DNA from: Anaerolineae bacterium
Lineage (GTDB): Bacteria; Chloroflexota; Anaerolineae; S140-20
Direction of reading: 5' to 3'
Length of the DNA: 64,000 nucleotides
Assembly: GCA_027021705.1 (NCBI GenBank)
Contig: JALUTT010000002.1
Span: 11,650 to 75,649, forward strand
Notes under the pieces: model-generated
What the model saw: the letters and a program-made list of their open reading frames with translations, nothing else
Told to the model about the DNA's origin: nothing
Databases searched by the model: none
Translations under genes and position numbers: made by a program
In this document: in pieces, positions 16,099 to 30,195 of the stretch
How the letters are laid out: every line of letters begins with the position of its first letter
Position numbering within the stretch: position 1 is the stretch's first letter

Positions 16099-16605
16099 TT
16101 AGATGAAGATGATCTGGGCGCCTTCGGTCATGTCAATGAAGTCGCTGGCGGTGACGATGCCCTCGACGCCTTCGACGAAGTCGTCCATCGTCAGGCCCAT
16201 CATGTCCACCGTCATCTTGCAGGCGTACAGCTTGGCACCACCATCCACCAGCATCTGCAGGTATTCGCGCACCGGCGGCACGTCCAGGTCCGCGATCTTC
16301 TTCTTCAAGAAAGCGGTGGCGAAGGCGGTCATACCCGGCAGGGCGCCCATCCACTGGGGGATGCCCAGATTGCCGGTGGGCAGACCCATCAGGCTGAACT
16401 TGAAGCTGGTGTTGGCGACCGGGGCGATTTCCAGGTGGTCCACGCGCTTCTTGTTGATGATGTCCAGCCCCCAGAAGGTGAAGAAGATGGTCACGTCCAC
16501 GCCATTGCCCAGGGCGGCCCAACCCATAATCAGGGCCGGCAAGGCCATGTCTAGATCGCCCTTGGAGCAGATGAAGGCGATATGGCGGTTCTTTTCCTCA
16601 GCCAT
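16099..16605 (-). CDS. DsrE/DsrF/DrsH-like (DsrE2-type) sulfurtransferase
   Basis: IFFTFWGLD and LYACKMTVDMMG motifs. Confidence 0.9.
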   Translation of the reverse strand: MAEEKNRHIAFICSKGDLDMALPALIMGWAALGNGVDVTIFFTFWGLDIINKKRVDHLEIAPVANTSFKFSLMGLPTGNLGIPQWMGALPGMTAFATAFLKKKIADLDVPPVREYLQMLVDGGAKLYACKMTVDMMGLTMDDFVEGVEGIVTASDFIDMTEGAQIIFI

Positions 16606-16703
16606 TGTTGCTCTCCTTGATCCTGTGTCGGGAAGACCCCAAGGGTTTCCGGCCGGAGAACCCTTAGGGCCTTCGGCGGCTCCGAGAAGATCCAGGCGTG
16701 CTC

Positions 16704-17021
16704 TTAGACGCAGCCTTGGGGCTTCCCCAGCCCGGCGATGCGGGCGACCTTCTTGGCCGGGCCTTTGGGGAAGAGCTTGAACAGTTCCTTGGTGGGGATG
16801 CCCCCGGCTTTGGTGATCCGCCGCAGGGTTGGCGGTTCCCCCCGCGCCTTGAAGTCGGCCCGGCAGAACTCGATCACCTTCCAGTGGCGGTCGGTCAACT
16901 CCTCGATGCCCTCCTCACGGGCGAGCACTTTGGCGATCTCCGGCGTCCAATCGTCGGGGTTGACCATAAACCCCTCATCGTCGAACTCAATGGGCTTCCC
17001 AGCGATCTCTCGAACAGCCAT
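16704..17021 (-). CDS. tusE: TusE/DsrC family sulfur relay protein (single C-terminal Cys)
   Basis: DDEGF..PDDW, LTDRHWKVI and LFPKGPAKKVARIAGLGKPQGCV motifs. Confidence 0.9.
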   Translation of the reverse strand: MAVREIAGKPIEFDDEGFMVNPDDWTPEIAKVLAREEGIEELTDRHWKVIEFCRADFKARGEPPTLRRITKAGGIPTKELFKLFPKGPAKKVARIAGLGKPQGCV

Positions 17022-17080
17022 AGGTTTTCCTCCTTATTGGCTCTATAGCTTCTTCTGGCTTTATAGCTTACAGCTCTGGA

Positions 17081-17181
17081 GCTTGCCCCCTGCCCCCTGC
17101 AACTTGCCCCTTGCTCCTTGCCCCTTGCCCCCTGCCCCTTGCCCCTTGCAACTTGCAACTTGCAACTTGCCCCTTGCCCCC
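17081..17181. repeat. Heptamer tandem repeat (CTTGCCC/CTTGCAA)n
   Basis: About 14 imperfect 7-bp units between the DUF1641 gene and tusE. Confidence 0.9.
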
Positions 17182-17183
17182 TC

Positions 17184-17924
17184 TCACTTCGCGCTCTCAC
17201 CAACGGAGCGGAGCACGAGCAAGGTCTTGGAAAGTCCTCGCCGGACGGCAGGGTCGTTCAACTGCCGCAAGATGTGCAGCAGCGAGGTATCGGTCGGTTC
17301 CTCGGCCCTGGCCGTGACGGCCACCTGACCCATCATCTGCATGATCTCGGGCTGGGTCATCTCCTTGATGGTCCGCAGGATGAGGACGATGTTGTCGGCC
17401 AGTTGGCGCACATCCTCCTCGGTGAAGGAGGTCACGATCCGATCCACCATCTCCAGACCGCCCTGCAGGAAGACGAAGTACCCCTTCTGCTCCATCTCCT
17501 CCAGGCGGCGCATCAGGGTGAGGAAGACCTCCCGCGTGAGCGGGCTGAGGTCCTGCCACAGGTCCATCAGGCTCTCCAGTTGGTCCAGCATCTGCTCCAG
17601 GTTGCGGGTGTTGCGCAACAACCGCTTGAGGAGGTGGAAGATGTCCTCGATCTGGACGTAGCCTTCGATCTCCTCCAGTTGCTGGACCGAGAGCCGGAAG
17701 ATGTCGTTGAAGATGGGCGTCAGGTCGTCCTTGAGCTCATCCCACTCCTGGCGACGACGGCGCTGCTGGCGGGCTTCCTCGGTCAGAAAGGCGACCTGGG
17801 TGGTCAGGGCATCCAGCTTCTGGTGGATCTCCGCCAGGGCTTGAGCCGGGGGAAGGTCCGCCGCCACGGCCAGAGGGGCTTCTTGGGCTTGCCTGGGGTC
17901 TTGTGCCATCTGCCTTGCCTCCAT
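17184..17924 (-). CDS. DUF1641-like helical protein (common SQR neighbour)
   Basis: C-terminal SLLHILRQLNDPAVRRGL motif; coiled-coil character; SD GGAGG. Confidence 0.8.
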   Translation of the reverse strand: MEARQMAQDPRQAQEAPLAVAADLPPAQALAEIHQKLDALTTQVAFLTEEARQQRRRRQEWDELKDDLTPIFNDIFRLSVQQLEEIEGYVQIEDIFHLLKRLLRNTRNLEQMLDQLESLMDLWQDLSPLTREVFLTLMRRLEEMEQKGYFVFLQGGLEMVDRIVTSFTEEDVRQLADNIVLILRTIKEMTQPEIMQMMGQVAVTARAEEPTDTSLLHILRQLNDPAVRRGLSKTLLVLRSVGESAK

Positions 17925-17935
17925 CGAAGCGCCTC

Positions 17936-19168
17936 CTACATCCACTTGCCGGCCATCGTCATCTGCGCCGGGATGGGCATTTCCTTCCCCTTGAGCAGGA
18001 TGTTCCAGTAGATCCAGCGGAAGAGCATCTTGCCCCAGTGGTTGACCTCCGACTCCTGGAGCAGGGAGAAGGGGCCGATGCCCGGCAGGGGATACTTCCC
18101 CGGCAGGGGCTCCACGTCGTAGTTGAAGTCAATGAGGATGCCCTTGCCAAAGCCCGATTCGATGTAGCAGTTGGCGTGGCCGTCGAAAGCGTGGATCATC
18201 TCCAGGCCGTCAATGTAGCGCAGGAAGTTCTCGACGAAGACCTCCACGGCGAAGTGGGCCACCGAACCGGCCTTCGACGTGGGGAGGTTGGCCGCGTCGC
18301 CCAGGGCGAAGATGTTGTCGAACTGGGTGGAGAGGAAGGTGTGCTTGTCCACCGGCACGTGGTTCAGTTCGTCCCCCAGCCCTGAGCGCTCGATGACGTC
18401 CGCGCCCATATTCACCGGCACGGCGACCAGCAGGTCGTAGGGGATCTCCTGCTCGTCATAAGAGATGAGCAGCTTCTTGTCCGGGTCCACCCGCTCGACG
18501 AAGAACTCGGGCACCACGGAGATGTTCTTCTCCTCCAGGATGTTGCCCAGCAGCTTCGAGGCCCGGGGCTTGGTGAAGGCACCGGGCAAGGGGGTCACCA
18601 GGGTCAGTTCCACCCGATCCCGCATGCCCTGGGTGTAGAAGTACCAGTCGGCCAGCATGATGAACTCCAGGGGGGCGACAGGGCACTTGAAGGGCGTTTC
18701 CATGATCGTGACCACCATACGGCCCCCGGACCAAGTGCGCAGGTGACGGGCCAGAGCCAAGGCTCCCTCGTAGGTGTAGAAGTCGTGGATGGACTTGCGC
18801 CATTCGTGTTCGGCCAGGCCGGGCGTCTCCTCGGGCCGAGGATGGGTGCCAGTGGCGATGATGAGGAAGTCGTAGTTCAGGTAGCGGTTGTCCTTGGCGA
18901 TGCGCACCCGGTTGTGCTCCGGCTCGATCATCTCGATCTTGGAGACGATCATCTCGACGCCCGGTGGGATGAAGTCCCGCTTGGGCTTGATCACGTCGTT
19001 CCGACCGTAGATGCCAAAGGGGATGAAGAGGAAGCCGGGCTGATAGTAATGGGTCTCCTCCTGGTCCACGATGGTGATCTTCCACTCATCGGGGTCCAAG
19101 TGGTGGACCAGTTTGTTGACGACCATCGTTCCGGCCGTCCCGGCTCCAAGGACCAGTAATCGTTTCAT
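17936..19168 (-). CDS. sqr: Sulfide:quinone oxidoreductase (type III-like)
   Basis: GAGTAG, HYYQPG, FKCPVAPLE, GDAA..PTSKAGS, HANCYIE and NHWGK motifs. Confidence 0.88.
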   Translation of the reverse strand: MKRLLVLGAGTAGTMVVNKLVHHLDPDEWKITIVDQEETHYYQPGFLFIPFGIYGRNDVIKPKRDFIPPGVEMIVSKIEMIEPEHNRVRIAKDNRYLNYDFLIIATGTHPRPEETPGLAEHEWRKSIHDFYTYEGALALARHLRTWSGGRMVVTIMETPFKCPVAPLEFIMLADWYFYTQGMRDRVELTLVTPLPGAFTKPRASKLLGNILEEKNISVVPEFFVERVDPDKKLLISYDEQEIPYDLLVAVPVNMGADVIERSGLGDELNHVPVDKHTFLSTQFDNIFALGDAANLPTSKAGSVAHFAVEVFVENFLRYIDGLEMIHAFDGHANCYIESGFGKGILIDFNYDVEPLPGKYPLPGIGPFSLLQESEVNHWGKMLFRWIYWNILLKGKEMPIPAQMTMAGKWM

Positions 19169-19184
19169 CGTGTTCTCACTCCTC

Positions 19185-19949
19185 CTACAGGTTGGTTAGT
19201 TGGGCAATCGTCTTCAGTTTTCCCACCAGGACGCTGCGCTCGGTGGCGATGTGGGAGATGATGTCGGCGATCCGCTGCAGCAGGGAGAGCACCCACGCGC
19301 GCCGGTCCTGCTCCAGATGGTAGACCTCCTCCAGGTGGGGGATCAGGACCTCCGGCGAGACCTCAAAGGTGGCGGCGATGGCCTCGATCTCCTCCTGAGA
19401 CGGGGGCCAGCGGTCGGGGGCGATGCCGCCCACGATGACCATCCCTTTCAGTTCAGAGCCGACGCGTACGAAGGCGCGGGCGCAGAGGAGTCCCAGGTGG
19501 CTCCGGGTGAACTTGGGCTCCAGTTCGACCGTAGCAGCCAGGCCCTGCCATCCCTCGATGCACTTCTGGAGGGCGTTGGTGTGTTGGTTGATGGCGGAGA
19601 AGAGGCCGCACGGATTGCTCAACCGGGTGATGGGGCGGACCTGCATGTCGGTGATGATCAGCATCAGGCCCAGCGCCTCGGCGAAGGTGTCTTGGATCAG
19701 TTGGACGCATTCTAGGGGCAGCAGGGAAGCCAGGTCATCGTCGGCAGGGGGGGAGGGGGTGAGTTGCAACGAGGGTGTTGAGCCGTTCACCTGGGCCTGA
19801 AGCCATTCCTTCACCCGGTCGGCCGGGAAACGCCACAGCCGGCCCACCTTGATGGCCGGAATCTGACCGGCCTCGGCCATCCGGTAGATGGTCGAGCGGT
19901 CCACCTGGAGCAACTCCTGCATATCCTTCGCGGTCAGCATTTCCGCCAT
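19185..19949 (-). CDS. Transcriptional regulator: excisionase-like HTH_17 plus PocR ligand-binding domain
   Basis: LTAKDMQELLQVDRSTIYRMAEAGQIPAIKVGRLWRF followed by LIQDTFAEALG..IITD..SNPCGL. Confidence 0.85.
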   Translation of the reverse strand: MAEMLTAKDMQELLQVDRSTIYRMAEAGQIPAIKVGRLWRFPADRVKEWLQAQVNGSTPSLQLTPSPPADDDLASLLPLECVQLIQDTFAEALGLMLIITDMQVRPITRLSNPCGLFSAINQHTNALQKCIEGWQGLAATVELEPKFTRSHLGLLCARAFVRVGSELKGMVIVGGIAPDRWPPSQEEIEAIAATFEVSPEVLIPHLEEVYHLEQDRRAWVLSLLQRIADIISHIATERSVLVGKLKTIAQLTNL

Positions 19950-20045
19950 ACTGTCCCTCCCCCAGTTATTGTGATAACCGGAACTTTCGCGCTTATTGTA
20001 CCCTGCCTTTTTCTGCACGATAAGTGATATATTGCAGGATTCAAA

Positions 20046-20114
20046 CGTGATAAGTGTCACAATATGCAGAAAAGGAAACAAGATGCAGAATATGCAAAGT
20101 GTGCAGGGCTAGCA
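20046..20114. promoter_or_regulatory. Putative operator: CRP-like palindrome plus 9-bp-periodic nGCA repeats
   Basis: CGTGA-TAAGTG-TCACA at 20046-20061; nGCA at 20084, 20093, 20102 and 20111; same layout at 30196. Confidence 0.65.
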
Positions 20115-20220
20115 TAGATCTGAAGCGTTGGCCGGCGTGGATAACCCTGAGTCAAGACTCCCGAAGTCTGCCAGACCTCAGGAGTCTCCCAACACTTATT
20201 CGCGCTAACGGGCCTTGTGG

Positions 20221-20706
20221 TCAGCCGAGGGAAGGGGTCAAGCGGGCGTCGGGGGGAACCGTCTGGGTGCGGTCTATGACCACCTGGCGGTCAGCATTTT
20301 GCCGCAGCGCCAGGTGGGGCAGGGGGTGGGCGGCAGGACCGGCCTCCACGGTCCCGTCGGGAGCGAAGCGGCTGCCGTGGCAGGGGCAGCGGAACCCCTC
20401 CGGCGTCTGGTCCACCAGGCAGCCCAGATGGGTGCAGACGGCGGAGATGGCGAAGTAGCCGTGCTCGTCCCGGGCCAGGTAGGCCCGGGCCGGCGCGATG
20501 TAGAGGAGGCCGCCGGGGGCGAGGGAGGAAGCGTCCGGAACCGGGACGGGCGGCGGCGCTGGCGTGGTGATGGGCGGGGTGAGGAAACGCCAGAGGGCTC
20601 GCACCGAGCCCAGGAGGGCGAGGACCAGGCTGCCACCCAGCAGCCGGCCCAGGAAGGTCCGGCGGCTCATCCCCTCTCTCGTTCGGGAGGCGTCGTGCTC
20701 GTTCAT
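20221..20706 (-). CDS. Rieske [2Fe-2S] protein with Tat anchor
   Basis: SRRTFL, CTHLGC and CPCHGS motifs. Confidence 0.95.
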   Translation of the reverse strand: MNEHDASRTREGMSRRTFLGRLLGGSLVLALLGSVRALWRFLTPPITTPAPPPVPVPDASSLAPGGLLYIAPARAYLARDEHGYFAISAVCTHLGCLVDQTPEGFRCPCHGSRFAPDGTVEAGPAAHPLPHLALRQNADRQVVIDRTQTVPPDARLTPSLG

Positions 20707-20721
20707 TGGACTTGCGTTCCG

Positions 20722-22179
20722 TTACGGTGGTGACAGGAACGGCTTCAGCGCGTCGTCGCGCGGATAGGCGTGACAGGCGTGGCAGTAACGCGATTCCTGC
20801 TCGTCGGGTTTCTGTTGGCAGGCGCTCCCGTAGACCAGCGGCACCTCCACCTCTTCTCCCGACACCTTGAGGGTCTCCACGAAGCGGCCCGGTGCCACCT
20901 CTCGGACGGCCCACATCTTCTCTCCCCTAGGGGTGACGACCACCCGGTCGCCCACCCGGAGCTTCCCGTGGCCGTTGAGTTGGGCCTGGCGCATCGCCGG
21001 CTCGTCCTCGGCCGTGATGGGGGCCGTCTGAGGGAGCTCCCACAGCGTGCCGTGGCAGGTGCGGCACCGGACCACCTGGCTGTCGGTGACGGCATCGGCG
21101 ATGTGGCCGTTCCCCATCACCTCGTCGCTGGTATGACAGTCTATGCAGTCCAGCTCCCACTCGCAGAGGGTGAACTGGCCGATGGGCTGGTAGTACTCGG
21201 CCAGGCGGCGCTGCTGGCGGGGCAGGAAGTCGGAGAGGGAGGGGCCGGCCGGCGGCAGGTCCGGGCGTGGCGTGAAGGCCATCGTGCGCAGGGAGTAGTT
21301 GCCCCGGTTGTGGCAGTGGTTGCACTGGGAGAAGGGGATGGCGGTGGTCAGGCGGTGCAGCCGGCCGTGGCCGGGCTCGTCCCGAGGGATGGTGGGGTCC
21401 TGGCCCCGGTAGAGGCCGTCGTCGGCGTAGAGGTAGTGGCAGGCGGCACAACCGGTGCTGCGGTAGCGGTAAGGCTGGGGCGTCGCCGGCTCCGACAGGT
21501 GGCAGCCGCCCTCCAGGCAGGATCGACGGAAGCGGGTGTCTATGGGATGTCCGGAAGCGGTGACGCCCTGGGCGGCGAGGGCCGGCATCAGCTCGTCGGG
21601 GGCGGAGACGGGCAGGGGCTTCAGCGCGGCGACGAAGCCGGGCGGTGGGTTCGGGTCCTGGGCAGCCATCACCCCGTAGCGCCCCTCCTGGTCGGGCTGA
21701 GCGCCGAAGGCGTGGCGCACCAGGGCGATGCCGCCGGCGTAGGTGGCCATCAGGCTGCGGCCAACCCGCTCCACCCCATCGCGGCCTGCTTGGCCCGTGT
21801 GGCTGTGGCAGTTGCAGGCCCGGGCCATCGTCGCGAAGCCCGAGGGGTTGCGTCCGCCCACCAGCCCGGCGTGGGCCCGCTCCCGGTCCAGGGCCAGCCC
21901 GTTGCCACCGTGGCAGCTCACGCAGCCGAAGGTCTCCAGGGGATGGCTGGGGCTGATCTCCTCGATGCCCACGTGGCAGGTCGTGCACAGCTCCGGCTGG
22001 CCTGTCCGCGAGGGGGTGATGGACCGGATGCCCAGAGGGATGGGATCGTCGGGATGGGCGGCGTTGTAGCGGCGTTGCCATTGCTGCCACTCGGCCTGCC
22101 CGGTCCGCCACCAGGCGAAGGCCATCGCCAGGAGCAGAAAGAGGGCAGCTCCCACCGTCCACCGGACCGGATGCTTCAC
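20722..22179 (-). CDS. Membrane-anchored multiheme cytochrome c
   Basis: Seven CxxCH motifs (CTTCH, CVSCH, CAACH, CNHCH, CIDCH, CRTCH, CHACH) plus atypical CNCH and CLEGGCH; N-terminal TM helix. Confidence 0.92.
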   Translation of the reverse strand: MKHPVRWTVGAALFLLLAMAFAWWRTGQAEWQQWQRRYNAAHPDDPIPLGIRSITPSRTGQPELCTTCHVGIEEISPSHPLETFGCVSCHGGNGLALDRERAHAGLVGGRNPSGFATMARACNCHSHTGQAGRDGVERVGRSLMATYAGGIALVRHAFGAQPDQEGRYGVMAAQDPNPPPGFVAALKPLPVSAPDELMPALAAQGVTASGHPIDTRFRRSCLEGGCHLSEPATPQPYRYRSTGCAACHYLYADDGLYRGQDPTIPRDEPGHGRLHRLTTAIPFSQCNHCHNRGNYSLRTMAFTPRPDLPPAGPSLSDFLPRQQRRLAEYYQPIGQFTLCEWELDCIDCHTSDEVMGNGHIADAVTDSQVVRCRTCHGTLWELPQTAPITAEDEPAMRQAQLNGHGKLRVGDRVVVTPRGEKMWAVREVAPGRFVETLKVSGEEVEVPLVYGSACQQKPDEQESRYCHACHAYPRDDALKPFLSPP

Positions 22180-23249
22180 GGTATCACCTCCCCCACGGTC
22201 AAGACGATGAGGAGCAGGGCGATGAAGGCGAAGAGGGCCTGCACAGGGCCTCGTCGTCGGTCGAACCAGCGGCCGGCCCGGGCGTGGGGGTCCAGCCAGG
22301 GGATGGCGGCCAGGAGGGTGAGCAAGGCCAGCGGGATGCCCACCCCGGCCCAGAAGGGGGGGAGGTGGCGCAGCAGGCGCTGTACCCAGAGGAAGATCCA
22401 GGGAGCCTGGGCCGTGGGGGGAGGGCGGTCCAGGGAGGCAGAGGCACCTAGAGGGGCCGGGCGGAGGGCTGAGAGCAAGAGGAGCCCACCGGTGATCAGG
22501 AGGGCGGCGATGGTCTCCCGCTGGAAGAGGACTTCCTTGGAGACCATCCGGCGGGGCCGGCCCGCCGGGCGCGGAGGGCGGGAGATGCCGCCGTCCACCC
22601 GCAGCCGGAAGAGGTGGTAGACGATGCCGAAGACGACCGGGAGGGTCAAGCCGATGACGTGCCAGCCGTAGAAGCGGAGCAGGGCCGCCTCCCCGATCTG
22701 CCGGTCGCCCACCAGCACCAGGTAGAGGGACCGGCCCAGATGGGGGATCCGACCGACCAGGTTGGTGCCCACCAGCAGGGCCCAGTGGGCGCCCTCATCC
22801 CAGCGCAACACGTAACCGCTGAAGTCCCAGAGCAGGACGAGGACCAGCAGGCCGAGCCCGATCAGCCAGTTGAGGCGGCGGGGGCGGGCGTAGGCCCCGG
22901 TGAAGACGATGCGGGCCATGTGGAGCGTGACGGCCAGGACGAAGAGCTGGGCGGCCCAGTAGTGGAGCGCCCGGATCAGGCTGCCAAAGGCCACCACGTC
23001 TTCGATCAGGACGATGGAGGCGTGGGCCTCCTCCGGCGTGGGCTGGTAGTAGAGGGTGAGGAAGAGCCCGGTCAGGATGGTGAGGGTGGCGGCCAGGATG
23101 CTGATGCCGCCCAGACCGAAGGTGTAGGTGAGGCGGATGCTCTCGGCCGGGAGGCGGTCCGGGTGCAGGGCGTAGAGGATAGATTGGTGTCTCTGCCAGA
23201 GACGGCGGCGCCGTCGGGTAGAAGTGAGGACGCGCATCATCCTCGTCAT
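22176..23249 (-). CDS. Cytochrome b (bc-complex type)
   Basis: Heme His pairs RALHYW..LHMAR and GWHV..YHLF; SGYVLRWD; real start at MTRMMRV. Confidence 0.9.
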   Translation of the reverse strand: MTRMMRVLTSTRRRRRLWQRHQSILYALHPDRLPAESIRLTYTFGLGGISILAATLTILTGLFLTLYYQPTPEEAHASIVLIEDVVAFGSLIRALHYWAAQLFVLAVTLHMARIVFTGAYARPRRLNWLIGLGLLVLVLLWDFSGYVLRWDEGAHWALLVGTNLVGRIPHLGRSLYLVLVGDRQIGEAALLRFYGWHVIGLTLPVVFGIVYHLFRLRVDGGISRPPRPAGRPRRMVSKEVLFQRETIAALLITGGLLLLSALRPAPLGASASLDRPPPTAQAPWIFLWVQRLLRHLPPFWAGVGIPLALLTLLAAIPWLDPHARAGRWFDRRRGPVQALFAFIALLLIVLTVGEVIP

Positions 23250-23284
23250 CGGATCCCCTCCACAGGCTACCCGAGCCCCTGGGG

Positions 23285-24322
23285 TCAGCGGGCGAAGACG
23301 GGTAGGAAGTGGGAGAGCTGCCCGGCGTAGACGAAGACGTAGCGCAGCAGGAAGCCGCCGATCAGCACCAAGAGGCTGCTGGCCAGGCTCAACTGCCGGC
23401 GGTACTTGATGGCCCCCTCCTTCAGGATGATGGGGAAGAGCTCGTACCCCTCGACGGCCAGGGGGAGCAGCAGGCCCAGCCCGATCACGCCGATCCAGAA
23501 GGGGGCGGTGAAAGGCCCTCCCAGGATCAGCTTGAGCGAGGCGGCCGAGCTCCAGGTGTTCAGCGTCTGGTGCAGGAAGAAGGGGATGATGATGAAGATC
23601 TCCAGCACGATCAGCACGGCGTCCACCGAGACCAGCAGGTGCCGTTCGTGCTCCAGGGCTGCCGGGTCCAGCAGGTCTCCCACCAGGGTGGCGACCAGCA
23701 GGAGGAAGGCCACGCCGGTGGACATAGCCGAGAAGAGGAAGAGCTGGGCGACCATCGGGGTGTTCCAGAAGGGGCGGGCCGGGATAGCTCCCAGGAGGAC
23801 GCCGGTGTACATCCCTACGCCCAGGGAGATGGGAAAGCCGACGGCGGCCAGCACCCCTCGCCCGATGCGCACCGTCCGGGAGGGGATCGGCTGCCAGCGG
23901 GCAGGGGCGAGGAGGTCGCCGACGCGCTGGGGAACCCGGATCAGGTTGCGCAGGGGCCGGGGCAGCCAGAGGACCAGGTAGAGGAGCGAGACGATGACGA
24001 AGAGGGTCAGCAGCCAGCTCCCGATGGACATGGGCGAGGTAAACTGGATGGTGGTGAAGAGCAGCCAGAAGTGCAGAGGGCGTCCCAGGTCGAAGACGAG
24101 CATGGCGAGGCCCAACATCAGGGGCCAGGGGGCCAGCAGGGCTCCCAGCCTGGCGATGCGGCGGTAGCGCCCGCCGCCCAGGTAGGTGGCCAGGCCGGAC
24201 ATGGCGAAGATCCCGGCGCTGATGCCGGCGGTGTAGAGGTAGATGACCACCAGCAGGCCCCATTCGATCGTCGTCGGTGATCCGCTGTAGCCTTGGAGAA
24301 AAGGGTCGTAGGTTGTGGGCAT
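23285..24322 (-). CDS. psrC: NrfD/PsrC family membrane anchor
   Basis: WGLLVVIYLY, DLGRP, SPMSIGSWLL, YTGVLL..RPFWN and GGFLLRY motifs. Confidence 0.92.
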   Translation of the reverse strand: MPTTYDPFLQGYSGSPTTIEWGLLVVIYLYTAGISAGIFAMSGLATYLGGGRYRRIARLGALLAPWPLMLGLAMLVFDLGRPLHFWLLFTTIQFTSPMSIGSWLLTLFVIVSLLYLVLWLPRPLRNLIRVPQRVGDLLAPARWQPIPSRTVRIGRGVLAAVGFPISLGVGMYTGVLLGAIPARPFWNTPMVAQLFLFSAMSTGVAFLLLVATLVGDLLDPAALEHERHLLVSVDAVLIVLEIFIIIPFFLHQTLNTWSSAASLKLILGGPFTAPFWIGVIGLGLLLPLAVEGYELFPIILKEGAIKYRRQLSLASSLLVLIGGFLLRYVFVYAGQLSHFLPVFAR

Positions 24323-24337
24323 CGTGCACCTGCCTCT

Positions 24338-24901
24338 CTAGTCCACGAGGTAGAAGATGGCCGGCCCGGTTCCCGCTTCGGGGTAGAGGGTGTAGTGTTG
24401 GTGGGTGGCGAGCAGCTTGGAGACCTCGCTCTCGGGGTCGTTGAGGTCGCCGAAGTGGCGAGCTCCTCCCACGCAGGTCTCCACGCAGGCCGGAGGCTGC
24501 CCGGCGTCCAGACGGTGCACGCAGAAGGTGCACTTGTCCACCACGCCCCGCTCTTCGTCGAAGTAGCGGGCGTCGTAGGGGCAGGCCTGGATGCAGTAGC
24601 GGCAGCCGATGCACCGGTCGTAGTCAATGAGCACCAGCCCGTCCTCCCGGCGGTAGGTCGCGCCGGTGGGGCAGACCCGCTCGCAGGGCGGGTTGGTGCA
24701 GTGGTGGCAGTTCTCCGGCGCGAAGAAGAGGCTGACGTCGGGATAGCTCCCTTTGGTCTGGTGGGCGATCCAGTTGCGGTGATGTCCGATGGGCACGTTG
24801 TTCTCGACCGAGCAGGCGACCATACAGGCTTCACAGTCTATGCACCGCTTGGGCTCCATCACGAAGACCCAGCGGGGCGTCTTCTTCGTCGTATCCGCCA
24901 T
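24338..24901 (-). CDS. psrB: 4Fe-4S electron-transfer subunit (PsrB/NrfC-like)
   Basis: CIDCEACMVAC, CHHCTNPPCERVCP, CIGCRYCIQACP and KCTFC motifs. Confidence 0.93.
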   Translation of the reverse strand: MADTTKKTPRWVFVMEPKRCIDCEACMVACSVENNVPIGHHRNWIAHQTKGSYPDVSLFFAPENCHHCTNPPCERVCPTGATYRREDGLVLIDYDRCIGCRYCIQACPYDARYFDEERGVVDKCTFCVHRLDAGQPPACVETCVGGARHFGDLNDPESEVSKLLATHQHYTLYPEAGTGPAIFYLVD

Positions 24902-24914
24902 CGTCGTTCACTCC

Positions 24915-27161
24915 CTACGCTTTGGTGACCTTCACCATCGTCTGGCTGAGGGCCTGCGAGCCGGTGATGGGGTCGGTGAAGGTGAGGTGCAGGTCCGAAT
25001 CGCTGGCCCCGGCCCCGTAGGCCGTGCGCAGCCCCTTGCTCAGATGGCCGAAGCCGGGCGTCATGTAGACGCAGTCGGGGCGGATCCGTTCGGTCACGTG
25101 GGCCCGGGTCTTCACCCGACCGGCGGCGCTCTCCACCCACACTTCGTCGCCGTCGGCGATCCCCCGGGCGGCGGCGGCCTTGGGGTGGATCCAGAGGGGG
25201 TTGTCCGGCACCCGCTCGTGGAGCAGCCGGTTGTTGTGGGTGGCGAACTGGGTGTGCTGGGCCACCTTGCCCGTCAGCAGGTAGAACTGGCCTTCAAAGG
25301 GCTCCGGCGGCGCTTCCCAGGTGGGCACGGCGGGAAAGCCGGCGTTGCGCAGCACCTCGCTGGCCAGCTCGATCTTGCCGCTGGGGGTGTTCCAGCTCAG
25401 CGTAGGCTTCCCCTCCGCCTCGGCCGGGGCGGTTTCCGGCAGCCGGTAGAAGCCCCGCTCCTTCAGCTCCTCCAGCGTGATCTCCAGCGGGGCGAGTTGT
25501 TGCCGCAGGTAGTCCTCCTCGTCCTCGTAGGGGAAGTAGTCGCCCAGGCCCAGCCGCTCGCCCAGTTGCTTGAAGATCCACAAGCCCGACCGGCTCTCCC
25601 CCAGAGGCTCGACGGCCGGCTGGCGGATGAAGACGATGCCGTCCACCACCGTCAGTGGGTCGTACCGCTCCAGGTAGCTGGCCTCGGGCAGGACCACGTC
25701 GCTGAACCAGGCGGTGTCGTTCATCGCGATGTCAATGGTGACGATGAACTCCAGCTTGCTGAAGGCTTCCAGTGTCTTGCGACGCTCGGGCAGGGCGTTG
25801 ACCGGGTTCTGGCGGTAGATGAACCAGCCCTTGGCCTGGTAGGGTTCGCCCCGCAGGATGTTGTCGCGGATCTCCTGGAAGACGCCCAGCTTCAGGGGCA
25901 CCAGCGGGTACTTCCAGGGCACGCCGTCCAGCCGCAGGGCGGCCACGCGCGGGTAGGGGGGGTGGGGGAGGGAGGCCAGGCCGGCCCCTTCCTCGCCGGC
26001 GGCCGGCTGGAGGCCGCCGGGCTGCCCCCAGTTGCCCACCAGCGCGTTCAGGATGGCGATGGCCCGCTCCGTCTGGAAGGAGTTGAGGAAGTTGCTGGTG
26101 CGCCAGTTGGGGTGGGCGAAGGCGTGGGGGGCTGCCAGGGCGAACTCGTGGGCGATCCGCCGGATGGTCGAGGCCGGGATCTCCGTCTTGGTGGCGGCCC
26201 ACTCCGGCGTGTAGTCGCGCACCGCCTCCTTGAGCTCGTCGAAGCCCACGGTGTAGGCTTCCACGAAGGCGTGGTCGTAGAGGTCGTTGTAGATGATCTC
26301 GTGGATCAGCGCCAGGTGGAAGGCCAGGTCGGTCCCCGGCTTGATGGGCAGCCATTCCGTGGCCTTGGCTGCCGTCTTGGTGAAGCGGGGGTCCAGCACA
26401 ACGACCTTGGCCCCCCGGGCGATGGCCGCCACCAGCGCCTGGCTCTCCGAGTTGGAGATGGCCTCCAGCAGGTTGCGGCCCGTGTAGATGATGTACTGGG
26501 CAGCGCTGTAGTCGCGGCCCGGCTCCTGCACCCCGTAGGTGAGCAGGTTGGCGACGATCATCGCGTTGAAGCAGAGGGAGCGCTGGGTCCCGTAGTTGGG
26601 CGAGCCGTAGGCTTTCAGCAAGTTCTCGAAAACGGGCTGGAGCAGGTTGTGGGTGGTGCTGAAGATCATCGCCTCGGGGCCGTATTTTTCCTTGATCTCC
26701 AGCATTCGCTCCGCCACGTAGTCCAGGGCTTGCTCCCAGGAGACGCGCTGCCACTTGCCGCTGCCCCGCTCGCCGGCCCGGATCATCGGGTAGAGCAGGC
26801 GGTCGGGGTCGTAGAGGGTGGCCACCCCCGCCTGCCCTCGGGGGCAGAGCATCCCGTTGGAGTGGGGGTGATGGGGGTTGCCGTCCAGCTTGTAGACCTT
26901 CCCGTCCTTGACCTTGGCGACCAGGCCGCAGCGCCAGACGCACTGCTCGCACAAAGAGTAGACCTCGCGGTCGAAGACGACGGGCGGGAGCGGTTTCAGT
27001 CCACCGTCCGGCGAGAGGGACGGCTCCAAGGAGAGGCGGGGGAGCCGCAGCCCCAGCCCCAGGGCGGCCAGGGTCCCGGCGCTCACCCCTAGGAAAGTCC
27101 GCCGGCTGATGGGGCGGTCCAACACCGACGGTTCGGGTGCTTCACGTCCTTTCTTGCTCAT
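24915..27161 (-). CDS. psrA: Polysulfide/thiosulfate reductase-like molybdopterin catalytic subunit
   Basis: Tat motif SRRTFL, FS0 motif CEQCVWRC..LCPRG, Mo ligand region QRSLCF, DVVLPEASYLER. Confidence 0.88.
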   Translation of the reverse strand: MSKKGREAPEPSVLDRPISRRTFLGVSAGTLAALGLGLRLPRLSLEPSLSPDGGLKPLPPVVFDREVYSLCEQCVWRCGLVAKVKDGKVYKLDGNPHHPHSNGMLCPRGQAGVATLYDPDRLLYPMIRAGERGSGKWQRVSWEQALDYVAERMLEIKEKYGPEAMIFSTTHNLLQPVFENLLKAYGSPNYGTQRSLCFNAMIVANLLTYGVQEPGRDYSAAQYIIYTGRNLLEAISNSESQALVAAIARGAKVVVLDPRFTKTAAKATEWLPIKPGTDLAFHLALIHEIIYNDLYDHAFVEAYTVGFDELKEAVRDYTPEWAATKTEIPASTIRRIAHEFALAAPHAFAHPNWRTSNFLNSFQTERAIAILNALVGNWGQPGGLQPAAGEEGAGLASLPHPPYPRVAALRLDGVPWKYPLVPLKLGVFQEIRDNILRGEPYQAKGWFIYRQNPVNALPERRKTLEAFSKLEFIVTIDIAMNDTAWFSDVVLPEASYLERYDPLTVVDGIVFIRQPAVEPLGESRSGLWIFKQLGERLGLGDYFPYEDEEDYLRQQLAPLEITLEELKERGFYRLPETAPAEAEGKPTLSWNTPSGKIELASEVLRNAGFPAVPTWEAPPEPFEGQFYLLTGKVAQHTQFATHNNRLLHERVPDNPLWIHPKAAAARGIADGDEVWVESAAGRVKTRAHVTERIRPDCVYMTPGFGHLSKGLRTAYGAGASDSDLHLTFTDPITGSQALSQTMVKVTKA

Positions 27162-27183
27162 CTCGCGTTTCCCCTTTGGCGTT

Positions 27184-27762
27184 TTACGCTTTCTGTCCTG
27201 TGCTCCCCACCTGGTCGGCCTTCGCCCTGGGGTCGCCCGTCTTGCCCAGGACGTAGAAGAGGATCAGCGTGATCTCCGTGAACAGGATGATCAGCAACCA
27301 GGGGTTGGCGTGGATCAGGTCTGCCAGGACGACGCTACCCAGGTTGGCCAGGGCCGAGATCTTGGGGAAGACCTGCGGGTAGGTCAGGCCGTAGAGGATG
27401 GCCCCGACCAGGAAGCCCAACATCCCGGGGATCAGGTAGTCCAGGTTGCCTTGGCCGCCACCGGCGACGCAGGTTCCCGGTCAGAAGCCCGCCAGGGCCA
27501 TGCCCACGCCGAAGATCAGCCCGCCCACCAGGTTGCCGACGACGTAGGTGGGGGTGATTTTCATCAGTGTGATCACGCCCAGGGCTTGCAGGCCGTAGAG
27601 GCCGATCATCCCCACGACCAGGGCGGACATCATGAACTTGAGCACGGCCAGGTCCGTGAAGCGGAAGACGTTGACGATCTTGGAGTACTTGGTCAGGCCG
27701 GCCTTCTGCAGCAGCCAGCCGAAGCAGAAGCCGAAGATCAGCGCGAGCAGGTAGTCGAGCAT
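27184..27762 (-). CDS. YeeE/YedE family sulfur-compound transporter, probable selenoprotein (in-frame UGA at 27481-27483)
   Basis: The two track ORFs are in frame; read-through gives GMALAGF-U-PGTCVAGGGQGNLDY, with UGA at the conserved GxCPG Cys; a hairpin follows directly. Confidence 0.85.
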
Positions 27763-27772
27763 CGTATTCCCC

Positions 27773-28309
27773 CTAGAACTTGCTGCCGTAGAGGATCATC
27801 GCGGTCACGATGCCGGAGACGAACATACCGGCGATGAAGATGAAGGCGGCGGGAGCCAGGGCGATCCCCCCGGCGATGGCCAGCCCGCTGGTGCAGCCGC
27901 CGGCGATGCCTGCGCCGTACTCCAGGATGATGCCGCCGACGAAGGCGGCCACCCAGCGCTTCCAGCGGCTGGGCCCGAAGACCCGCTTCCACTGGGGGTC
28001 GGGCACCGGGTCCAGTTTGAAGGTGTCGGAGAGCTTGGAGGCGGCGAAGGCCCCGAAGAAGGCACCGACCAGCAGGATCACCTGCCAGGTGATGCCCGGC
28101 GGCATGACGAACTTGAAGTAGAGGTTCTTCTCCACCAGGTCGGGTGCCACCGCCTTCAGGATGAGCCCGCCGATGTTCTCGAAGGAGCCGGAGGCTCCGA
28201 TGGCCTGGTGGCTGAGGGCGACGATGAGGACGGCGACGATCCCCAGGCCGGCCCCCGACCAGATGGGGGACCACTCTTCTTTCCTCAGAGCGCGGATGAT
28301 CGCGTTCAC
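27773..28309 (-). CDS. YeeE/YedE family sulfur-compound transporter
   Basis: GAGIAGGCTSG motif; hydrophobic and Gly-rich. Confidence 0.9.
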   Translation of the reverse strand: MNAIIRALRKEEWSPIWSGAGLGIVAVLIVALSHQAIGASGSFENIGGLILKAVAPDLVEKNLYFKFVMPPGITWQVILLVGAFFGAFAASKLSDTFKLDPVPDPQWKRVFGPSRWKRWVAAFVGGIILEYGAGIAGGCTSGLAIAGGIALAPAAFIFIAGMFVSGIVTAMILYGSKF

Positions 28310-28328: not shown

Positions 28329-29324
28329 CTATGAGAGCTCCTTGCGCAGCGCCATCAGCAACTCCACCTCCTCAGGGTCCAGGCGGGTGACGGCGGAGAG
28401 CAGGTTCAAATCCAGACGGGAGACCGCTTTGAGCACCTGCGGCCCCAGGGGGCGGTTGCTCAGCAGCCGGGCGATGGCTTCTAAAGTGGCGGGATCGGCC
28501 TCGGCCAGGGTGGCGATGACCTCCGCCAGCGCTGGCGGTTCGGCGGTGGGGGCCGGCTGCCCGGTGGGGTAGGGCCTTACCTCGCCAGGGGATGGGATGG
28601 ACGGGGGCGCAGCGGGGGCACCGGCCAGGGCCGCCTGCATCTCCATCAGCATGTTGGCCCGCCACCAGGCGGCGAGGCGGCTGGGCACCTGCTCGAAGTG
28701 CCACACCAGGCCGAGGAAGACCAGGGCCAGCAGGAGGATGAGGGCGATGAGCACCAGGTTGCTGACGTTGGTCCTGGGCTGTTCGGCGGCCTGGCTCTCG
28801 GCGTAGACCTTGTTCAGGTCAATGATCTCGCCTCCCGACGGGGCGCTCACCGGACCGGCTGCGGCCGGGGCGGCGGGGGCCTCCGAAGAGGGCGCCGAGG
28901 GGGCCGATGGGGCTTCGCCGGCCGGAGGGGCTCCACCGCCGCCGCCGGTGCCCACTTCAACGCCCAGCACGCCGGCGTACTGCTGGGCCAGGTCCATGTA
29001 GTCGTTGGGGTGGCACGACTGACAACTGGCCTGGACGTCGCCCAAGGGGGCGACCAGCCCCTGGTGGGCGGCTTCCTTGTCCGTGGCCTGCACGTCGCCG
29101 GCGTGGCAGAATTCGCAGAAATCGCCGAAGGCGTGGGCCGTGTGCCACTCCCCCTCGTTGTTCACCGGGTCCTGCCCTTGCACCTCGTGGCAGTTCTTGC
29201 AGGAGGAGACCGAGGACCCGCACTGGGCTACTGCCTGTCGCTCGTTCAGCCCCCCCATCAGCACCAGGCTGAGGGCGGCCAGGGCGAGCAGCAGGCCCAC
29301 CCGTATCGGTATGCGACGGTTCAT
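28329..29324 (-). CDS. Triheme cytochrome c with Pro/Ala linker and C-terminal TM helix
   Basis: Signal peptide; CKNCH, CEFCH and CQSCH motifs. Confidence 0.85.
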   Translation of the reverse strand: MNRRIPIRVGLLLALAALSLVLMGGLNERQAVAQCGSSVSSCKNCHEVQGQDPVNNEGEWHTAHAFGDFCEFCHAGDVQATDKEAAHQGLVAPLGDVQASCQSCHPNDYMDLAQQYAGVLGVEVGTGGGGGAPPAGEAPSAPSAPSSEAPAAPAAAGPVSAPSGGEIIDLNKVYAESQAAEQPRTNVSNLVLIALILLLALVFLGLVWHFEQVPSRLAAWWRANMLMEMQAALAGAPAAPPSIPSPGEVRPYPTGQPAPTAEPPALAEVIATLAEADPATLEAIARLLSNRPLGPQVLKAVSRLDLNLLSAVTRLDPEEVELLMALRKELS

Positions 29325-29360
29325 GCTTCCCTCCATCCAACTCCGTGCGATGGGTGACGG

Positions 29361-30092
29361 TTACGATCTTGCCGAAAGGCCACGCTCCGTGGCGAGGTGG
29401 GACATGATGTTGGCGATGCGTTGCAGCAAGGTGAGCACCCAGGCTCGCCGGTCCGCTTCCAGGTGGAAGACCTCCGTCAGGTGGGCGGCCAACGCCTCTG
29501 GGGGAACGTCGAACGTGGTGGCGATCGCCCGGAGGGCCTCGTCGGAGGGGGGCCAGTCGTCGGGGGCAACGCCTCCCAGGAGCACCATGCCCTTCAACTC
29601 GTGGCCAACGCGGATCAAGGCCCGGGCGCAGAGGAGGCCGGAGGTCGTGCGCGTGAACTGCGGCTCCAGGTCAATGATGGTCGCCAGATCGTGCCAGTCC
29701 TGGATGCAGTGGGAGAGGGCGTTGGGGTTCTGGACGATGATCTCCAGGAAGCCGCAGAGGTTGCTGAAGCGGGTGATGGGGTGCCCCTCCAGATCGGTGA
29801 TGACCAGGGTCACGCCCAGCGCCTCGGCGAAGGTGTCCTGGATCAGCTGGACGCACTCCAGAGGCAGCAGGGAGGCCAGGTCGCTCTGGGAGATCAGGGC
29901 ATCGGCGGGAAGGGATGGGGCCGAAGTCTCGACCCGGCTCTGGAGCCACCGCTTGACCAGGTTAGCGGGGAAGCGCCACTGCTTGCCCACTTTGATGGCC
30001 GGGATCTGACCGGCCTCGGCCATCCGATAGATGGTCGAGCGGTCCACCTGGAGCAGCGCTTGCAGGTCCTTGGCGGTCAGCATCTCGTCCAT
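29361..30092 (-). CDS. HTH_17 plus PocR regulator, paralog of 19185-19949
   Basis: Long identical stretches with the first copy (VDRSTIYRMAEAGQIPAIKVG, DLASLLPLECVQLIQDTFAEALG). Confidence 0.85.
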   Translation of the reverse strand: MDEMLTAKDLQALLQVDRSTIYRMAEAGQIPAIKVGKQWRFPANLVKRWLQSRVETSAPSLPADALISQSDLASLLPLECVQLIQDTFAEALGVTLVITDLEGHPITRFSNLCGFLEIIVQNPNALSHCIQDWHDLATIIDLEPQFTRTTSGLLCARALIRVGHELKGMVLLGGVAPDDWPPSDEALRAIATTFDVPPEALAAHLTEVFHLEADRRAWVLTLLQRIANIMSHLATERGLSARS

Positions 30093-30195
30093 AGGCTTCC
30101 TCGTTCCGTGGGTCGAATATGTGAAAGTTTGAACGTGCGTGCCCATCTTAGTCCGTTTCCCCGTCTCCAGCAAGTGACGTATGGCAGCGCCAACA

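Follow-up and report, generated by a model that had tools for sequence, protein, structure and literature searches.

A split YeeE/YedE channel gene with a predicted selenocysteine in a conserved operon of Anaerolineae-type Chloroflexota

YeeE (TsuA) of S. thermophila, with the structures 6LEO, 6LEP and 8J4C, and YeeE of E. coli belong to the YeeE/YedE family and function in thiosulfate uptake (PMC7449682). As described in that paper, the solved YeeE is one chain of ~330 amino acids (aa) with nine helices and three cysteines. These residues (C22, C91 and C293) lie ~7 Å apart, at the constriction that they line in its hourglass-shaped pore. The mutations C91A and C293A abolish YeeE function, whereas C22A does not. 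How thiosulfate or sulfane sulfur passes through YeeE-family proteins is debated, and a hydrogen-bond relay and covalent transfer have both been considered (PMC7449682, PMC11582611). PmpA and PmpB of Serratia are smaller proteins of ~130 aa with four helices. According to PMC11582611, PmpB is the N-terminal half (N-half) with a Cys91-type cysteine, PmpA is the C-terminal half (C-half) with a Cys293-type cysteine, and the two are proposed to form a heterodimer. Here, we describe a gene for the N-half of such a two-piece channel with a predicted selenocysteine (Sec, U) at the Cys91 position. The gene is located at 27184..27762 on the minus strand of a 64,000-nucleotide stretch of DNA (the window) from an Anaerolineae bacterium (GenBank assembly GCA_027021705.1, contig JALUTT010000002.1, positions 11,650 to 75,649).

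Sec-containing YeeE/YedE proteins are listed in the reviews PMC13188914 (2026) and PMC9312934 (2022). The entry in PMC13188914 gives the family PF04143, the motif GUxSG, one Sec, and the representative WP_012471001.1. Supplementary file 4 of Peng et al. 2016 contains five YeeE/YedE selenoproteins in five organisms, but neither Zhang & Gladyshev 2008 nor Peng 2016 mentions YeeE, YedE or COG2391 in its main text. Because the reviews already list YeeE/YedE selenoproteins, the claim is not new at the level of the family. The gene in the window shares with the catalogued proteins the Pfam family, one Sec in place of a conserved pore-loop Cys, and prediction by Cys/Sec logic. It differs from them in three respects. 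The local motif is G(F/Y)-U-PGTC instead of the listed GUxSG; the product is a subunit of half size, and its partner has retained the Cys of GGCTSG; and the gene lies in a conserved cytochrome c/Psr-like operon of Anaerolineae-type Chloroflexota. The GCxSG motif belongs to the upstream half, which keeps Cys rather than Sec there in all 77 loci where that gene was found. The UPGTC site motif, the split N-half and the conserved Anaerolineae-type Chloroflexota operon thus appear to be the new elements. No paper describing a split UPGTC Sec-YeeE was found among open-access papers and preprints (supplements: Peng 2016 only), and no paper on the selenoproteome of Anaerolineae was found among open-access papers and preprints.

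The gene is a frame of 193 codons (27762..27184), and its sole internal stop is the TGA at 27483..27481, codon 94. When this TGA is read as Sec, the predicted product has 192 residues, with Sec at position 94 and Cys at position 98 (U-P-G-T-C). The translation around codon 94 is ...GMALAGF-U-PGTCVAGGGQGNLD..., and the longer translation is ...GVGMALAGF-U-PGTCVAGGGQGNLDY... Two listed open reading frames (ORFs) of 93 aa (27481..27762) and 79 aa (27184..27423) are pieces of the frame. The downstream ORF begins with ATG, and 20 codons separate the TGA from that ATG. The initial annotation had proposed a hidden selenoprotein in a single 193-codon frame broken only by TGA, and the frame translation agrees with it. 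Its description of the ORFs, the frame and the stem was correct throughout, but the minus strand was not stated. The comparisons below indicate that UGA-94 (27481..27483, minus strand) very probably encodes Sec.

The read-through protein matched PF04143 (Sulf_transp) with 72.5 bits against a cut-off of 27, covering profile positions 9–155 of 310. The gene directly upstream (27773..28309, minus strand) encodes a putative partner C-half of 178 aa (PmpA-like) with Cys139 in AGGCTSG. It matched PF04143 with 63.3 bits at profile positions 169–309 of 310, and both halves thus belong to this family. A phmmer search of solved structures aligned residues 7–106 of the Sec half with residues 5–103 of S. 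thermophila YeeE (6LEO/8J4C, E = 1.8e-6). In this alignment, U94 falls on Cys91, and the position of Cys22 is taken by Thr24. The same search with the upstream half gave no significant match (E ≥ 0.17, unrelated proteins), and its identity as a C-half is assigned from Pfam and NCBIfam. The Cys of its GGCTSG corresponds to Cys293 of the solved YeeE. The alignment shows that the predicted Sec would replace the Cys equivalent to the essential Cys91, and the gene is probably the N-half of a two-piece (PmpAB-like) YeeE/YedE channel.

Compared with the solved YeeE, which is a single chain (PMC7449682), the channel here would be encoded by two genes of 178 and 192 aa, with Thr24 at the Cys22 position, Sec for Cys, and an extra Cys98. 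A TsuA/YeeE protein is expected to be a single chain of ~330–350 aa with C22, C91 and C293 and to score above the equivalog cut-off; here, Sec and Cys stand in for C91 and C293, Thr occupies the place of C22, and the scores fall below that cut-off. No YeeD/TsuB-like gene was seen among the scanned window genes. The pair resembles PmpA/PmpB of Serratia in the two-gene split, in one pore Cys or Sec per half, and in the adjacency of the genes, with the C-half gene first here. It differs from PmpA/PmpB in the length of its subunits (178 and 192 aa vs. ~130 aa with four helices; PMC11582611) and in the Sec of the N-half. The score for PF20398 (DUF6691) was also below the cut-off (23.5 vs. 27 bits), and many orthologs carry a precomputed PF20398 match.

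Three structural details of the initial annotation stood in part. The GxCPG motif is particular to this clade, since the solved YeeE has GGCASG at the site. Pairing of the Sec half with the upstream GGCTSG half agrees with strict adjacency and with N-half and C-half homology, but the heterodimer itself is a prediction. The UxxxC motif is present as U-P-G-T-C, but its redox role is likewise conjectural.

A one-genome-per-species search found 72 related loci, nearly all of which were labelled as Anaerolineae or Chloroflexota metagenome-assembled genomes (MAGs). A search of 40 relatives gave nine extra loci. In the resulting 81 loci, in which codons were read by in-frame tblastn, the codon-94 column contained TGA in 44, TGC in 26 and TGT in nine. 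One locus had a gap (L030) and one had no covering match (L031). The Cys/TGA alternation on which the proposal depended was therefore found at this very column (35 Cys and 44 TGA of 81 loci). Some rows are not independent: L023 is the same as L063, L060 and L061 come from one MAG, and so do L085 and L086. The TGA was the only internal stop in each of the 44 TGA loci, and the other stops were the natural ends at 183–188. Neither TAA nor TAG occurred at the column among these 44 stop-bearing loci. An in-frame UGA aligned with Cys, with UGA homologs elsewhere, is the pattern of a bacterial selenoprotein gene.

The sequence on the far side of the TGA was conserved as well. In the TGA loci, the part before the TGA was on average 70% identical to the window and the part after it 59%, and the latter value indicates that the sequence past the TGA is being kept. 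The stretch of 20 codons that separates the TGA from the ATG further on, and that holds UPGTC and the hairpin described below, was conserved in frame. Cys98 was present in 44/44 TGA loci compared with 18/35 Cys loci. A quick tree of 74 rows was built, from which six Cys rows with a match shorter than 140 residues (L024, L027, L029, L095, L100 and L103) were left out. It required at least six changes between Sec and Cys, two of which were forced by well-supported branches. A 14-member Cys clade was nested among the Sec forms in this tree.

A bacterial selenocysteine insertion sequence (bSECIS)-like hairpin was located at 27449..27473 (minus strand), directly 3′ of the UGA. With the U of UGA as nucleotide 1, the upper stem pairs GUCGCC (nt 16–21) with GGCGGC (nt 25–30) and begins 12 nt after the UGA. 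The apical loop is GGU (nt 22–24, 27462..27460), and its first G is the 19th nucleotide after the UGA. A lower stem of 3 bp pairs nt 11–13 with nt 33–35. Folding thus agrees with the proposed stem and its G-containing apical loop. The bSECIS model given in PMC13188914 has an apical loop of 3–9 nt, an upper stem of 4–16 bp, a G in the first two loop positions, a distance of 16–37 nt from the UGA, and an MFE (minimum free energy) of −7.5 kcal/mol or lower. The window hairpin falls within these limits, with a 3-nt GGU loop, an upper stem of 6–7 bp, 18 nt between UGA and loop, and −12.4 kcal/mol. Its position, loop size, leading G(G/U) and stem length also fit the consensus for formate dehydrogenase bSECIS elements (PMC13188914).

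The pairing was compared between TGA and Cys genes. In 45 TGA genes (43 distinct), 94.2% of the pair cells were standard, compared with 29–71% when the partners were slid. The closing pair 21–25 was compensatory among the 43 distinct TGA genes, with CG in 29, UA in five and AU in one. Where the pair was U-A or A-U, the Ala codon had changed synonymously (GCU/GCA), and this was matched by a Gly-to-Ser or Gly-to-Cys codon (AGC/UGC). The covariation of the hairpin is real but thin. For the Cys genes, 28 of 35 were aligned (27 distinct rows), and the seven most distant were omitted. Only 64.8% of their cells paired, and pairs 19–27, 20–26 and 21–25 were unpaired in 16, 21 and 16 of the 27, respectively. 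The TGA genes have therefore preserved the bSECIS-like element postulated in the initial annotation, and the Cys genes have not. Unlike the folding energy, the conservation at this locus (the TGA at this exact codon, the lack of other internal stops and the preserved hairpin) greatly exceeds what chance would give.

Two further observations were made on the hairpin. Codon 101 of the TGA genes is Gly (GGC, pairing with Ala GCC), or else Ser or Cys, in which case the Ala codon compensates; residue 101 of the Cys genes is mostly Ala (GCG) or Ser. At this residue, the protein seems to be shaped by the RNA structure. The Cys-type locus L048 (TGC; 2614–2661) retains the hairpin in full (GUCGCU-GGU-AGCGGC), which suggests that Sec was recently replaced by Cys and that the SECIS stayed behind as a "fossil".

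The genome (94.9% complete) contained the machinery for Sec, and the search for selA, selB, selC and selD was thereby answered. A tRNA-Sec (selC) with the anticodon TCA scored 72.5 bits, selB 303.7 bits and selA 566.1 bits, and selD carried one in-frame TGA. In selD (G000:C41:5488-6420, L018), the UGA lies at CAG-U-ASK and is followed by a hairpin with a 7-bp stem and a GUU loop. Two FdhA-like genes (G000:C5:62785-64938, L104, and G000:C56:110094-112925, L107) have UGA at CARL-U-HSATV and HQARI-U-HSATV, with a hairpin after each. The canonical FdhA, with CARL-U-HSATV, has GUCGCC-GGUCU-GGCGAC at nt 16–32 after the UGA. This hairpin shares its 5′ arm and the three bases that open the loop with the YeeE-half hairpin, without a mismatch and in the same register (nt 16–24), and the loops differ in size (5 nt, GGUCU, in FdhA vs. 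3 nt here). The comparative evidence shows that the organism makes selenoproteins. The presence of selA was examined in 50 of the 72 locus genomes, hand-picked as 25 TGA-type and 25 Cys-type; these are MAGs, so the absence of a gene is weak evidence. A selA above the cut-off was found in 24/25 TGA-type and 16/25 Cys-type genomes. From this strong comparative evidence, we infer SelB-directed Sec insertion.

Public annotation cuts the gene at the TGA, as had been anticipated for standard gene callers. A search with the 93-aa fragment, covering proteins predicted from public genomes and metagenomes, gave 1,777 matches at E ≤ 0.001. The best 120 of them were all 92–95 aa long and ended at G(Y/F/I), the residue before the TGA, and the NCBI-named proteins among these 120 show the same cut. 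A sequencing error at the TGA was excluded. Contigs of runs X2 and X3, which come from a different study than the possible source run X1, spanned the whole gene, including the TGA at 27481–27483 and the hairpin. X2 differed from the window at 14 positions and X3 at 11, none of them listed at the TGA or the hairpin. Of the nine runs listed for the sequence, none was an RNA run. With the TGA kept in these contigs and in 44 other loci, the check for a read error that had been called for is settled. The locus appears to be a genuine, widely conserved selenoprotein gene that is systematically mis-annotated. Since this truncation at the TGA is widespread, the sulfur-transport capacity of Chloroflexota and the size of their selenoproteome are probably under-counted.

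The pair of channel genes belongs to a module with the conserved order cytochrome c, C-half, N-half, PsrA/PhsA-like subunit, and 4Fe-4S (PsrB-like) subunit. The C-half lies immediately upstream of the N-half in 44/44 TGA loci and 33/35 Cys loci. Many of the misses of module genes correspond to contig ends or distant relatives. The first gene (28329..29336, minus strand) encodes a 335-aa protein that is putatively an exported c-type cytochrome. Its translation contains three CxxCH motifs (CKNCH, CEFCH and CQSCH), a hydrophobic segment, and a middle part of low complexity that is rich in Ala and Pro. Neither Pfam nor NCBIfam gave a match for it. Its homolog was found upstream in 41/44 TGA loci and 25/35 Cys loci, and it was the first module gene in 66/79.

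The gene downstream of the N-half (24915..27161, minus strand) encodes a 748-aa catalytic subunit of a Psr/Phs-type molybdopterin oxidoreductase, with matches to Pfam Molybdopterin, Molydop_binding and Molybdop_Fe4S4. It carries the twin-arginine motif SRRTFLG near its N-terminus. Its best NCBIfam model was thiosulfate reductase PhsA (620.8 bits, below the cut-off of 694), and a homolog was found downstream in 39/44 TGA loci and 26/35 Cys loci. The next gene (24338..24901, minus strand) matched families of PsrB/TtrB/DsrO-like 4Fe-4S electron-transfer subunits in Pfam and NCBIfam and had a homolog in 35/44 TGA loci and 21/35 Cys loci. An NrfD/PsrC-type membrane quinol-interacting subunit follows (23285..24322, minus strand; PF03916, 181.5 bits), with a homolog in 10/44 TGA loci within the flanks fetched. 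Upstream of the module, a regulator with a PocR sensor and a helix-turn-helix (HTH) domain (29361..30173, minus strand; PF10114, PF12728) had a homolog in nine of the 44 TGA loci.

Further genes lie downstream of the Psr-like genes on the minus strand. They encode cytochrome b (22176–23270), a 485-aa ORF to which no family was assigned (20722–22179), a Rieske protein (20221–20706), a second PocR-HTH regulator (19185–20081), a Pyr_redox_2 flavoprotein of SQR-like size (17936–19168), a DUF1641 protein (17184–17945) and a DsrE-like protein (16099–16605). The region 16099–23270 looks like a sulfur and electron-transport neighbourhood.

We propose the following mechanism. UGA-94 would be decoded by SelB and Sec-tRNA(Sec), directed by the hairpin with the GGU loop in the coding region. 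The N-half would pair with the product of the directly upstream gene, which would supply the Cys293 equivalent in GGCTSG. Sec94 and Cys139 of the partner may lie opposite one another in the pore, in the manner of C91 and C293 of YeeE. Sec, aided by Cys98 of UPGTC, would then relay a sulfur species through the membrane. The candidate cargoes are thiosulfate, polysulfide and sulfane sulfur, and a selenium analogue is possible. The channel may serve the co-encoded periplasmic Psr/Phs-type molybdoenzyme and the c-type cytochrome. Its conserved tie to this type of reductase and cytochrome suggests a testable physiological role.

Sec is normally selected at chemically reactive cysteines. Together with the invariant Cys four residues on, this can be taken as a hint of covalent Se–S chemistry beyond hydrogen bonding, which is speculation. 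A tentative and rather unlikely extension concerns the occurrence of Sec at the Cys91 equivalent together with Cys98 in dozens of species. It would mark the residue as a nucleophile and not a mere hydrogen-bond donor. The split YeeE might then move sulfur by covalent chalcogen exchange, through a transient Se–S or persulfide intermediate resolved by Cys98 or by Cys139 of the partner. The operon might in that case be an undescribed sulfur-trafficking/respiratory module of Anaerolineae, in which the channel hands sulfane sulfur to or from the molybdoenzyme. The natural Sec/Cys pairs at an essential central cysteine provide a direct handle on the question of relay or covalent transfer.

Several points weigh against the reading of this locus as a Sec-containing sulfur channel. 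The prediction of Sec at UGA-94 comes from comparing sequences, and we infer the heterodimer, the substrate and any Se–S chemistry. The TsuA models of NCBIfam (NF041049 and NF052577) gave 50.5 and 27.7 bits compared with cut-offs of 400 and 645, although TsuA was the best model for the Sec half. As all NCBIfam transporter models were far below their cut-offs, the function of TsuA is not simply transferable. The hairpin is G+C-rich and no stabler than shuffled sequences (z = +0.46; 135/200 dinucleotide shuffles folded at least as well). The mean MFE of 48-nt segments was also alike in TGA genes (−17.7) and Cys genes (−17.9), and stability was discarded as evidence for these reasons. Two-sided changes were seen in just one of the ten pairs, and in the shuffle control (a) for pairs changed on both sides, 380/500 shuffles were as high. 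Because the stem lies in G+C-rich DNA that encodes Ala-Ala-Gly-Gly-Gly, some of its pairing is a consequence of the protein sequence. An Rfam search of 27100–27900 at a permissive E-value gave chance-level matches to eukaryotic long non-coding RNAs and microRNAs and no SECIS family. One TGA-type genome (G044, a MAG whose completeness is not known) had no selA.

Among the alternatives, the one that survives best accepts Sec at UGA-94 and changes the function. The pair would be a selenium transporter (YedE/FdhT-like), or would serve a respiratory reductase of selenium or another chalcogen, and not be a channel for sulfur or thiosulfate. YedE/FdhT proteins are of the same superfamily, and their association is with organisms that use selenium. 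The organism here uses selenium, as its Sec machinery and other selenoprotein genes show, and Psr-type molybdoenzymes include chalcogen reductases. Weak YedE/FdhT matches were also obtained for the two halves (38.2 and 34.7 bits). However, the YedE/FdhT models TIGR04112 and NF033796 gave 28.2 of the required 200 bits and 38.2 of the required 350 bits, which does not place the protein in YedE/FdhT, and no yedF-like gene was seen beside the YeeE pair. The best models, TsuA for the Sec half and PhsA for the molybdoenzyme, both below their cut-offs, point to sulfur, as do the DsrE-like protein and the SQR-like flavoprotein among the neighbours. Nine of the 25 Cys-type genomes with the same operon had no selA above the cut-off, and the module is therefore independent of the use of selenium. 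We consider this alternative unlikely, and a sulfur-related channel is preferred.

The TGA may otherwise be a true stop, either in a pseudogene or in a gene that is split by design and gives a 93-residue peptide and perhaps a separately initiated one of 79 residues. Public gene calls treat the TGA in this way, and the 79-aa ORF has its own ATG. Against this, all 44 loci have TGA as the stop, at the Cys column in each case and without any other lesion, and the 20 codons before the ATG are conserved in frame. A break at the TGA would also lose the essential pore Cys, and full-length Cys-type orthologs occupy the same operon. A true stop is thus very improbable.

Reading of the UGA as a standard amino acid without Sec machinery, by near-cognate Trp/Cys decoding or by a reassigned code, finds an echo in the W at the site in four of 120 full-length database proteins and in the TGA=Trp code of some pipelines, but it is hardly credible for a genome that ends genes with TGA and has full Sec machinery, for a column that alternates with Cys only, for a SelB-type hairpin whose conservation is specific to the TGA genes and which agrees with the one in the FdhA of this genome, and for TGA-type genomes that nearly all carry selA (24/25). 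A pseudogene and Trp read-through were both rejected on the TGA at the Cys column, the conserved hairpin and the Sec machinery, and Sec remains the preferred reading of UGA-94. The four Trp-bearing homologs (P0011, P0033, P0082 and P0115; G-x-W-PGT at the Sec column) are presumably TGA genes that metagenome pipelines called under a TGA=Trp code.

Additional copies of YeeE-type genes were also observed. Two MAGs each carried two copies of the module on different contigs (L060/L061 and L085/L086). Both copies were TGA-type in one of these MAGs, and both were Cys-type in the other. The genome of the window also encodes a full-length single-chain YeeE paralog (G000:C171:32865-33887, L110), which matched the whole PF04143 profile with 234.6 bits and had no in-frame stop.

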